A stretch of DNA of 64,000 bases from Eledone cirrhosa (lineage: Eukaryota). The translations under genes were made by a program, and so were the position numbers. The DNA lies in contig OZ024742.1 in NCBI GenBank assembly GCA_964016885.1, forward strand, positions 171,182,001-171,246,000, in the 5' to 3' direction. How positions within the stretch are numbered: the stretch's first letter is position 1; every line of letters starts with the position of its first letter. The notes under the pieces are model-generated. The model worked only from the letters and a program-made list of their open reading frames with translations, was not told where the DNA came from and ran no database searches. Shown here one piece after another: positions 3,715-63,871 of this stretch.

Positions 3715-3825
<111 letters not shown>

Positions 3826-3833
3826 TTATATGC

Positions 3834-3885
<52 letters not shown>

Positions 3886-3934
3886 TTATATGTATATATA
3901 TATATATATACTTATATGTATGTATATATATATA

Positions 3935-4235
3935 TATATTAATAAGAGGAATTCCAACTTTGTCTGATTTACTCGTTTTATTTACAATCCTTTAAAATAT
4001 ATATAATGGTATTATAATGAAATAGTATGATAGAATATTAAATTCTAAGTGTTAATTGTTCAATTAACACTTAGAATTTAATATTCTATCATACTATTTC
4101 ATTATAATACCATTATATATATTTTAAAGGATTGTAAATAAAACGAGTAAATCAGACAAAGTTGGAATTCCTCTTATTAATATAATCTTCTATACACAAT
4201 CATACACACCCGTGTATATTTACCTATCTATATCT
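3935..4235 (+). mobile_element. Near-perfect palindrome (3935-4058 / 4061-4184) of HHR-module family F plus 3' tail
   Basis: The right arm plus tail is nearly identical to 63677-63858. Confidence 0.9.
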
Positions 4236-4249
4236 ATATATATATATAT

Positions 4250-5370
4250 AAGGAGGAGGTTATATAAGGAGGAGTACTCAAACTGAACGGATACACGACA
4301 TCCACCACAAACCGTGCCAGAAAGAACAGAGGACACCACACCCGAGGCACTAACACTTGCTTCCTGAAGCTCCCACACTTCAGTGAAGAAACAACAACAG
4401 CCATCCGCAGAGCCATCAGACGAGAAGGTCTGGATATTCAACTGGCCCATTCGGGTCCTTCTTTGCGTGGACGGCTAGCTAAGAGACACTCCACCAGACA
4501 TGACAACTGCTGCAGACTAGCCAACTGCCCCATCAACGACACAGACCTATGCCACCAGGCTTACGTAGTTTACAGACTAGAGTGTGACAAATGCAACAAC
4601 TTCTACGTAGGTAGCACCACCAGACCACTCCACATAAGAATAAAAGAACACCTCAATACTAACGCTTCCTCATTTAAGAAACACCTAGTTAAATCCAAAA
4701 ACACTGATAAAAACATAACAGTTAGGATAGAAACTAAAGAAAGAAACCTCGGCAATCTTAGAATCAAGGAAGCACTCATTATAGATAGAACACATCCACC
4801 AATCAATAATAGACTAGAGCTCAACACCCAATTTATAACCTGATAGGGCCTCTAGCCCCACTTTACACACCCCACACACACGCACGCGCACACCCACACT
4901 TATTCTCTCTCACACATACACACACAAAACCAGTTCTAACACCAGATAACACCTACCCCCCACTTTTACGATTAGACCTATCTTCCCACACTCACACACA
5001 CACATACCTACACCTTCATGCTTTCTCCCACACACACATATACAGGCACGCATATAAAATTTAAAAAACACAACAAAAACATAAACAAACCCCTCTTAAA
5101 GGGAGACTACTCTTTACCCACCTAATTTTAATTCTTTGATATTAAAGTTAGAACTCTATACTATTTCCGGTCAGCATGGCTTCATTGGAAATTTAAGACG
5201 CTGGTCTGAGACCTTTACTTCCCTCCGAAGAAGAGATATTATCTCGAAAATTAAGGACATTTAAATAAATTCAAGGTGAAAGACGAATTCACATCAATAT
5301 CTCTCACTATTGCATTCTTTTCTCTATGTGCATATCTGCATTGTCTTGGCCTTATTACACATATTCTAAC
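4250..5370 (+). mobile_element. 5'-truncated Penelope-like element with GIY-YIG (ORF 4463-4843) and 3' UTR
   Basis: VVYRLECDKCNNFYVGSTTRPLHIRIKEH..LRIKEALII..PPINNRLE. Confidence 0.9.
5222..5256 (+). ncRNA. Minimal degenerate HHR in Penelope 3' UTR (U4 replaced by C)
   Basis: CCT-CCGAAGA-A-GAGAT ATT ATCTC-GAAA-AT-TA-AGG. Confidence 0.5.
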
Positions 5371-14517: not shown

Positions 14518-15228
<711 letters not shown>

Positions 15229-47699: not shown

Positions 47700-47884
47700 G
47701 ATAAATCTACCAAGAGTTTACGGTAGTGTCCAATCCGTATGAAGAACTCAATGTATTCCGGATATCATGGAAAGAAGAGATGTAATGAAAATCCAATTTC
47801 GGTGAAAGATAAACGGTATACAGAGTGAAGATAAAATATTAAATAAATAATGAACAAACAATTCCTTATATTAAACAAAAAAAG

Positions 47885-48039
47885 TTCACTATTTAACGAT
47901 CGTTTCTAGGGTATATATGTGCTATAATTGGTATGCATATTTAACAGATCTATGTACAAAATTATACAAAATTATACAAATTATCAAGATTAAATATACA
48001 TACCTAACTCATATATACGCCGTCTTCAGAAATAATGAA
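47885..48039 (-). ncRNA. Type I HHR with long stem II (inverted copy)
   Basis: Reverse complement of 50553-50707. Confidence 0.75.
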
Positions 48040-48801
48040 GTATATTTATTGATAATAACAACAATTCAAAATATCAGTTCAAAATTGACCAATGAAAACA
48101 CAAAGGGTTAAAAAGCAGTTTGGTGTGTGTATATACATGTAAAACCCTACACGCATTTTACAATAATGTGTGTATAATATGTATGTGCATACTAAAAAGA
48201 TGGATGCAAATAAAAAATTTCAAGGTTAATATCTCTGTAAGCTTAATGCGCTGATAATATACGCAATGATACTTATGTAGTCAAGCATATAAATATATTT
48301 TTTTCATACTCACACATATCAGTATAATCACACATACATGTGCGTATATATATAAATATACACATAACCACGAACACACAAACACACACACACCCCCCAC
48401 TCACATTTATATATGTGGATATAAAATCATAAGCAAATAGAAATTAAGTCACTCACATAAACACACTGGTACACACATTTCAAGATCAAGATACAGAAAT
48501 TAGGTGGGAGGGGGGGGGGAGGGGTCAGTGTTAGGTTGTCAGACCAGACAGCCTAATATAAATGTATCTATAAATTATGAAAAATAAAAAAATAAAAACA
48601 ATAAAATATATTACATATAATATAATGTACATACGCATACAGATATACATACACATACATACATGTACGCGCACATAGAGATATCTACACATACATACAT
48701 ACACACATACCTATACTGTCATACACACACATACATTTACACGAACATACACATACACATATAAAAAGATAAAAATACGGACACACACACGCGCAACACA
48801 T

Positions 48802-48850
<49 letters not shown>

Positions 48851-48961
48851 TATACACACACACACATAGACTCATATATATATACATACACATACATATA
48901 CTTATACATAAACATATATATCCCACACTCATACCACCATGAAAACACATACGAACATCCA

Positions 48962-49010
<49 letters not shown>

Positions 49011-49106
49011 ATACACACACGTACACATATATGCATATATACATACATATATACACACATACACATATATACATATATATACACACACACGTAAAATACA
49101 GACATG

Positions 49107-49143
<37 letters not shown>

Positions 49144-49235
49144 TTCATTACCCTTATATATACACATAGTATATATACATACACAACCTCACTTATACAC
49201 ATATACACATAAGTTATATTACAATAATAATAAAG

Positions 49236-49272
<37 letters not shown>

Positions 49273-49413
49273 TATACACACATATACACAAATATACATA
49301 CATACACATACATATACATACATACATACACATACATACATACACCTAAATATAAACATATATAAATACACACATACGAATAAAGACATATATTCACACA
49401 TAGACACCTATAT

Positions 49414-49457
<44 letters not shown>

Positions 49458-49544
49458 ATATACACACACATACACATACATACACATATATATATATATA
49501 CACATATATACACACGCACACACATACAGACACACATACACACC

Positions 49545-49581
<37 letters not shown>

Positions 49582-50552
49582 ATGTGAGTGTGCGCAAATA
49601 CATACATATATATATACACACACACATACAAACACACACAAACACATACATATGCATACATGCACACACACACACATATATCACATAGATACAAAGATAA
49701 ACATATAAATAGAGAGACATACAAATATATACAGAACCCATATACACATACATGCAAACACGCATATACATATATACATATATACACACATATATATTCC
49801 TATATACAAGCATACACATACACACACATATATACATATACCTACACATATATATACCACACATTCACATACACGTACATATATAATACATATATATACA
49901 TACATATACATACATATGTATGTACAATCATATATACACACTCAATCTTACATTCATATTTACATGCTCATATATGTATTTTTATATCTAGAAATAAATA
50001 CCAAAAAAACTATATAGACACCCATCTACCCATATATTCATACATATACACTTACAAAAACAGATGATAATAGTATGGGGGAAAGGGGGGGGTTTGGAGA
50101 AGGGGATCAAAGTAAATATATGTTTCAAGAAACCTATAATATTTTCCATATCTTAATTCAATGTATGTTCTTACATATTTTCAATGTTAGGAAATAACGT
50201 GTGTGTGTGTTTGTGTGTTCGTGGTTATGTGTATATTTATATATATACGCACATGTATGTGTGATTATACTGATATGTGTGAGTATGAAAAAAATATATT
50301 TATATGCTTGACTACATAAGTATCATTGCGTATATTATCAGCGCATTAAGCTTACAGAGATATTAACCTTGAAATTTTTTATTTGCATCCATCTTTTTAG
50401 TATGCACATACATATTATACACACATTATTGTAAAATGCGTGTAGGGTTTTACATGTATATACACACACCAAACTGCTTTTTAACCCTTTGTGTTTTCAT
50501 TGGTCAATTTTGAACTGATATTTTGAATTGTTGTTATTATCAATAAATATAC

Positions 50553-50707
50553 TTCATTATTTCTGAAGACGGCGTATATATGAGTTAGGTATGTATATTT
50601 AATCTTGATAATTTGTATAATTTTGTATAATTTTGTACATAGATCTGTTAAATATGCATACCAATTATAGCACATATATACCCTAGAAACGATCGTTAAA
50701 TAGTGAA
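50553..50707 (+). ncRNA. Type I HHR with ~115-nt stem II, GUU triplet
   Basis: TTCATTATTT-CTGAAGA-..GTATATATG..GGTATGTATATTTAA...TTAAATATGCATACC..CATATATAC..-GAAA-CGATCG-TT-AAATAGTGAA. Confidence 0.75.
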
Positions 50708-50752
50708 CTTTTTTTGTTTAATATAAGGAATTGTTTGTTCATTATTTATTTA

Positions 50753-51101
<349 letters not shown>

Positions 51102-51479: not shown

Positions 51480-51502
<23 letters not shown>

Positions 51503-51510
<8 letters not shown>

Positions 51511-51829
51511 AGATCAAAAGATGGTTAAAGGAGTTCAATATATTTTATTATGCGCATTTCAAAAACAAACATCATCAAACAATAATATTTGTGTTTTCAT
51601 CAGATAAAACAGGAGAACATGATATGAAGGCTAAAAAAAACACTTGTTGATAGTGCAGTTTTAAATCAACAAACTGCACTATCAACAAGTGTTTTTTTTA
51701 GCCTTCATATCATGTTCTCCTGTTTTATCTGATGAAAACACAAATATTATTGTTTGATGATGTTTGTTTTTGAAATGCGCATAATAAAATATATTGAACT
51801 CCTTTAACCATCTTTTGATCTTATATTAT
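51503..51829. mobile_element. Near-perfect palindrome (9-nt spacer) with HHRs at 51543-51609 (-) and 51723-51789 (+)
   Basis: TTTTAT-CTGATGA-AAACACAAATATTATT GTTT GATGATGTTTGTTTTT-GAAA-TGCGCA-TA-ATAAAA. Confidence 0.85.
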
Positions 51830-51912
51830 GCATACTCCAGTCCCACAAACTGTAGAGTGCTTCTTATCCGATATCTGCATTGCTTTATTGTACTACAATA
51901 AAACTCACCTCC

Positions 51913-63505: not shown

Positions 63506-63644
63506 TATACTCCAGAAGAAAATTGTTGAGTGCTTATAATCTGTTATAAATTAAATTTGTTGAATAATCAACTCATTTCTTATATATATATATATATATA
63601 TATATAAGAAATGAGTTTGCAAATTCGACTGTCACCACATATCA

Positions 63645-63683
63645 TGAACCTGAAGATTGCGAAAGCATGAAAGTACTTGTTCA
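63645..63683 (+). ncRNA. Minimal type I HHR (family F), GAAA tetraloop stem II, CUU triplet
   Basis: TGAAC-CTGAAGA-T TGC GAAA GCA T-GAAA-GTAC-TT-GTTCA; predicted cleavage after 63678. Confidence 0.85.
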
Positions 63684-63871
63684 ATTAACACTTAGAATTT
63701 AATATTCTATCATACTATTTCATTATAATACCATTATATATATGTTAAAGGATTGTAAATAAAACGAGTAAATCAGACAAAGTTGGAATTCCTCTTATTA
63801 ATATAATCTTCTATACACAATCATACACACCCGTGTATATTTACCTATCTATATCTATATATATATATATT

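Follow-up and report, generated by a model that had tools for sequence, protein, structure and literature searches.

The question raised by this stretch of the Eledone cirrhosa genome, a window of 64,000 nt, is why a palindrome at its left end folds back almost exactly where a hammerhead ribozyme, intact in a second copy of the same repeat at the right end, is predicted to cut. It bears on two wider questions: do the tiny hammerheads found in Penelope-like elements cut in living cells, and how do the inverted repeats of these elements arise? The answer favoured here, with a probability of about 0.72 and resting on sequence comparison, is that two copies of an end repeat stand head to head in the palindrome, that their RNA template had likely been cut at its 5' end by the element's own hammerhead before reverse transcription, and that the joint is likely a record of ribozyme cleavage in the germ line.

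Comparison within the window shows that all 124 bp of the two arms (3935-4058 and 4061-4184) pair perfectly around an unpaired TT (4059-4060), and that the right side runs about 50 nt past the arm. The palindrome is set in (TA)n, with a (TA)n-rich left target flank at 3716-3934 and a right flank of (TA)n at 4236-4250. A single substitution separates 4056-4250 from 63677-63871, in agreement with the sequence-only reading, which had described a near-identical copy preceded by a 124-bp inverted arm. Numbering starts at the predicted cut: the 3' product begins with +1 (G63679, equivalent to G4058), which places the palindrome centre 2 nt 3' of the cut. The apex had been placed within about 2 nt of that site, which is correct, though TTG (4056-4058) can be read from either arm, and this 3-bp microhomology (TTG/CAA) fixes the breakpoint only to -2 to +2. 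In this numbering, the minus-strand arm (3935-4058) is a short, tail-less copy of the end repeat from +4 to +127, as defined by arm comparison and by the arm ends of the family; the unpaired TT is +2 and +3 within a TTG-TT-CAA microhomology joint; and the plus-strand long arm (4058-4184) begins with G(+1) of the predicted ribozyme product. A tail of about 45-50 nt (4185-4235, plus strand) follows on this arm only and includes the sequence that leads up to the start of ORF1 in full-length copies. The end repeats of full-length copies L048-L050 show no difference from the long arm over 176 nt (4061-4236), and the window insertion is therefore young. The adjoining segment (4251-4843) comes from the 3' part of another Penelope-like element; it encodes a GIY-YIG domain (Pfam E 6e-6) and does not match the palindrome's family.

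The second copy (63620-63858, plus strand) retains the ribozyme and has its 5' end near the upstream cluster of start-site ends discussed below. Its hammerhead (63645-63683, plus strand) is of the minimal type I form, with the CUGANGA core as CUGAAGA, GAAA, an NUH cleavage triplet, stem I (UGAAC/GUUCA, its 3' strand being +1 to +5), stem II (UGC-GAAA-GCA) and a palindromic AGUACU helix III, and its predicted cut falls between 63678 and 63679, that is between CUU and GUUCA, where the sequence-only reading had put it. The core is intact in 127 of 155 sampled arms, the self-duplex of helix III is predicted at -4.8 kcal/mol and stems I and II are kept in the co-fold; folding predicted no strong helix whose 3' foot falls at +1. 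Among the first 150 of 429 matches listed in an Rfam scan of the window, mostly microsatellite matches to microRNA models, no hammerhead family was present. Other minimal hammerhead motifs, with a TATA-type helix III, lie at 275, 61661 and 63406, and a third hammerhead-bearing repeat forms an inverted pair at 51500-51830 (cores at 51603 on the minus and 51729 on the plus strand) with its centre upstream of the ribozyme. The window also holds a 563-bp perfect inverted repeat (47831-50761, arms 1805 nt apart) and, by eye, minus-strand reading-frame fragments resembling reverse transcriptase (2033-2907), likely from an old LINE.

As judged from its sequence, the palindrome represents the head-to-head insertion of an end repeat that belongs to a young, Neptune-like Penelope-like retrotransposon of 4.2 kb, which occurs as tandems (L046, L047, L049) and inverted pairs. 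At least 3760 arms of this family are present in the genome by pattern count. The 775-aa frame of L049 contains a reverse transcriptase domain (Pfam RVT_1, E 7e-7) followed by a C-terminal GIY-YIG domain (E 3.5e-6); a DKG motif was recognized by eye against the description in the available text of PMC8557442, and a C-x4-C-xx-C motif upstream of GIY-YIG fits the CX2-5CxxC of Neptune and Nematis without separating the two. Partial tandems, an inverted truncated copy and a one-sided tail are further traits shared with endonuclease-containing (EN+) Penelope-like elements, whereas the full-length copies examined have two overlapping frames instead of the canonical single ORF, so that the element is not filed as a canonical single-ORF member. 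An animal non-LTR retrozyme, a non-coding tandem repeat without a reverse transcriptase gene, was ruled out, the repeat being the end of a protein-coding element. The two ORFs overlap by about 90 nt in the -1 frame (L049:3278-3371, also in L046-L048, L050, L051, L053 and L055), and just after the in-frame stop of ORF2 the full-length copies carry an in-phase U-UUU-UUA heptamer, which we take to have the form of a slippery site. The overlap with its heptamer is a candidate for programmed frameshifting; downstream of the heptamer no strong stem was found in full-length copies, and a literature search on this candidate frameshift gave no match. Subfamily variants seen by eye at +17/+18 and +66 (window 4071-4080 and 4116-4127, element +14 to +23 and +59 to +70) might be explained by compensation within an RNA stem downstream of the cut. 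An apparent discordance between arms at +66 was likely due to ascertainment, as the query had selected arms with that base.

To place the window joint among others, the whole genome was searched with exact patterns for pairs of oppositely oriented anchors 0-30 nt apart. The 16-nt bin that contains the cut (anchors ending at +13) yielded 101 head-to-head joints, the bin upstream (anchors ending at -12) 8 and the bin downstream (anchors ending at +29) 14. With anchors ending at +4, 7 of 16 joints are identical to that of the window, which is thus repeated at six other loci, all with different flanks. Among 50 of the 101 joints, inspected by eye as listed, 22 fit an end exactly at +1, 3 at +2, 14 at +3, 4 at +5 and 1 at +12, and 6 lie at -3 to -9. 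One such palindrome joins two 4.2-kb elements at the cut (L050), and another locus (L246) shows two restarts at +1. The 5' ends tell the same story in a hand-curated sample from contigs C1 and C2, drawn from arms whose match to the element stops between +30 and -28: the first 100 of 428 rows gave 74 loci, from which 21 were dropped (12 with internal indels, 8 with a partner arm at -69 to -75 or complex restarts and 1 ambiguous). Of the 53 scored ends, 39 fall at -3 to +5, where 7.6 are expected (p about 3e-22), with 3 upstream and 11 downstream. The sequence-only reading had proposed that truncation and inversion points, set against the cut, would peak there instead of spreading uniformly, and both do; its suggestion that the template was the ribozyme's 3' product is thereby supported, as a minority pathway.

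A peak of this kind might also arise from a microhomology hot spot, where random truncations, or later collapse of longer palindromes, are resolved at short inverted repeats at +1 to +13. The commonest joints do use 1-4 bases of microhomology in this hairpin-prone stretch, 14 of the 50 listed ending at +3, and the three commonest employ TTG/CAA, TGTT/AACA or TTAATTAA-type pairings; moreover, a second family with another sequence at this place lacks the peak. However, microhomology is no richer at the cut than downstream (joints with at least three bases available number 7 in the cut bin, 8 downstream and 3 upstream), and the best pairing at hand, the 8-bp AAGTACTT palindrome of helix III just upstream of the cut, was used in none of the 16 joints with anchors at +4. 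In three joints (L038, L178, L162) each of the two arms stops at or beside +1, with no microhomology or with extra bases inserted, and the upstream edge of the peak is sharp (3 of 53 events over 23 positions). Ends running straight into host DNA without inversion peak at the cut as well, with 8 of 17 at -3 to +2 for 1.5 expected (p 5e-5), and no hairpin accounts for these 17. Taken with these observations, a hot spot is a rather improbable source of the peak.

Cleavage need not be invoked if reverse transcriptase stalled on the folded, uncut ribozyme, or on a protein bound to it, and dropped off near stem I. The 3' strand of that stem occupies +1 to +5 and ends are seen at +2 to +6, as such stalling would have it. 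Against this, the foot of stem I predicts ends at about +6, and the largest class reaches +1; joints do not accumulate at stem II (8 in number), nor, by eye, where an 8-bp leader hairpin has its foot near -47; and most cDNAs pass through the ribozyme, which is read through by about 86 of the first 100 arms listed. Stalling is accordingly given very little credence. A fold-back artefact of assembly or of long reads has a next to negligible probability: no short-read contig bridging the centre occurs among the matches listed for four runs, a kind of gap that proves nothing, and contigs of four sequencing runs show the family and its tail-less ends, while the inequality of the arms follows the pattern fixed in the family (+127 versus the tail), the two flanks differ and the same joint stands at seven unrelated loci.

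The cut accounts for the smaller of two peaks. Among the first 100 unselected arms listed, 9 break at -4 to +3 by eye and 5 over the next 50 nt, whereas 18 of 30 unselected arms end at -59 to -74, as do 59 of 100 by eye in another list. In the genome, 1264 head-to-head joints lie at -73, 73 nt upstream of the cut, as counted with anchors ending at -67, a pattern that also takes in more diverged subfamilies (5958 arms). This peak has a hard edge at ACAGTT (-73), a TATA-like box 31 nt upstream and three CCAAT boxes further upstream, and is likely the transcription start; an extra G from a cap could not be separated by eye from microhomology. Joints at -73 show tiny microhomology, as do those at the cut, and since the two peaks behave alike, this supports the view of joints as RNA 5' ends. 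The major peak at -73 and the minor one at the cut suggest that most templates were uncut and kept the ribozyme. From these distributions, we infer that in living cells the ribozyme likely acts on a minority of the RNAs of the element. The sequence-only reading had taken the palindrome as what would be indirect genomic evidence of cleavage in vivo; the cut peak favours this, while that peak is minor and cleavage is read from joints. The exact RNA ends are predicted, a 5'-OH at GUUCAAUU for the cut and a capped end at ACAGUUG (-73) for the start. Among the sequencing runs listed as containing the element, none was of RNA.

How two copies come to be joined head to head is suggested by the tails. 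Arms of the family end at +127 in 104 of 273 cases and otherwise after the tail, and 70 of 81 palindromes combine one short and one tailed arm. In the preferred scheme, the GIY-YIG endonuclease would nick both strands of a (TA)n target, and each target end would prime a cDNA at one of two RNA start sites, +127 and about +175, leaving a one-sided tail. Both cDNAs would run off the 5' end of the RNA, usually the transcription start (-73) and in roughly 1 insertion per 10-15 the ribozyme cut (+1), and would then be linked head to head, with 0-4 bases of microhomology at the joint. The sequence-only reading had instead seeded the inversion at the cleaved 5' end, which corresponds to a single cDNA folding back on itself. 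Such a snap-back is reported for R2 after full-length cDNA, in the accessible part of PMC11371274, and fits the window copy, in which the arm reaching +1 is the tailed one, as well as the agreement of subfamily markers between arms (47 of 48 and 19 of 20). The arm that reaches furthest is, however, tailed in 18 and tail-less in 15 of 33 scored cut-type joints (10 and 7 at start-site joints), and a tail-less furthest arm cannot have templated a tailed partner, so that two cDNAs are needed at least in those 15; nor is any loop left in gap-free joints such as L038. Snap-back is therefore unlikely and twin priming, with two cDNAs joined, the likelier course; the proposed position of the joints at the cut stands, and the single fold-back does not extend to those 15 joints. 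The shared markers would then mean that both cDNAs likely came from one RNA or one source. In three palindromes (L121, L145, L208) the arms differ at several linked subfamily sites, and two different RNAs may have been used there.

A second hammerhead-bearing family offers a comparison of one family with one. Its head-to-head palindrome in the window (14600-15110) is centred about 80 nt upstream of its cut, and its core looks intact but helix III is not palindromic (self-duplex +1.4 kcal/mol, as against -4.8 kcal/mol in the palindrome's family). Among 3534 arms matching its pattern genome-wide no joint was found at its cut, the two joint loci both lying elsewhere, and about 3 of 26 breaks fall at +1 to +3; the pattern mostly sampled read-through arms, as a dominant subfamily with a 4-nt insertion also matched it. 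The lack of a joint there may be a natural negative control for cleavage by dimers, or it may mean that the peak depends on local sequence. A broader proposal, to which we give somewhat less than even odds, is that such palindromes act as a genomic 5'-RACE, in which the ratio of the peaks (about 1 to 12) would give the germ-line cutting frequency per family and only families with a self-complementary helix III would be marked, because cutting would need a dimer. As the signature is countable in genomes, both opening questions become testable from assemblies alone, family by family.

The element architecture, inverted copies, one-sided tails and ribozyme are already published, and a junction peak at the cut of a Penelope hammerhead did not turn up in the open-access literature searched. 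In the accessible parts of the work on EN+ Penelope-like elements of the Neptune/Nematis type (PMC8557442; PMC3846280), the features in common are a reverse transcriptase with C-terminal GIY-YIG, DKG and the linker CxxxxCxxC; partial tandems, an inverted 5'-truncated copy, a junction palindrome and a one-sided tail; and a hammerhead in the end repeat with a TATA/Inr-like promoter. They have one ORF where two overlap here, and those parts do not map joints against the cut; Arkhipova et al. (2013, PMC3846280) attribute head-to-head palindromes to self-priming on an antisense template. In Penelope-like elements, minimal type I hammerheads likewise have a short stem I, a palindromic helix III and predicted cleavage as dimers, with low activity in vitro and evidence in vivo stated to be absent in the text available (Cervera and de la Pena, 2014, PMC4209133). 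Frangieh et al. (2024, PMC11167929) found for the Poseidon element PAc of Anolis that both target strands are cut and extended in vitro, with the tail lying between two reverse transcription start sites, which fits the two-cDNA reading. According to the same partial text, its protein-assisted hammerhead is dispensable in vitro, the main template is uncut RNA, in line with the usual template proposed here, and neither RNA-seq reads nor genomic ends at the cut were detected, whereas the present family has a minority class of genomic joints there. A further parallel is the HDV-like ribozyme of R2, whose genomic 5' junctions follow the ribozyme cut as is proposed here (Eickbush et al., 2013, PMC3774820); as far as the excerpt available describes it, that ribozyme is of another class, in a site-specific element with every template cut, while in the Penelope-like family the cut would mark a minority of templates, in head-to-head joints.
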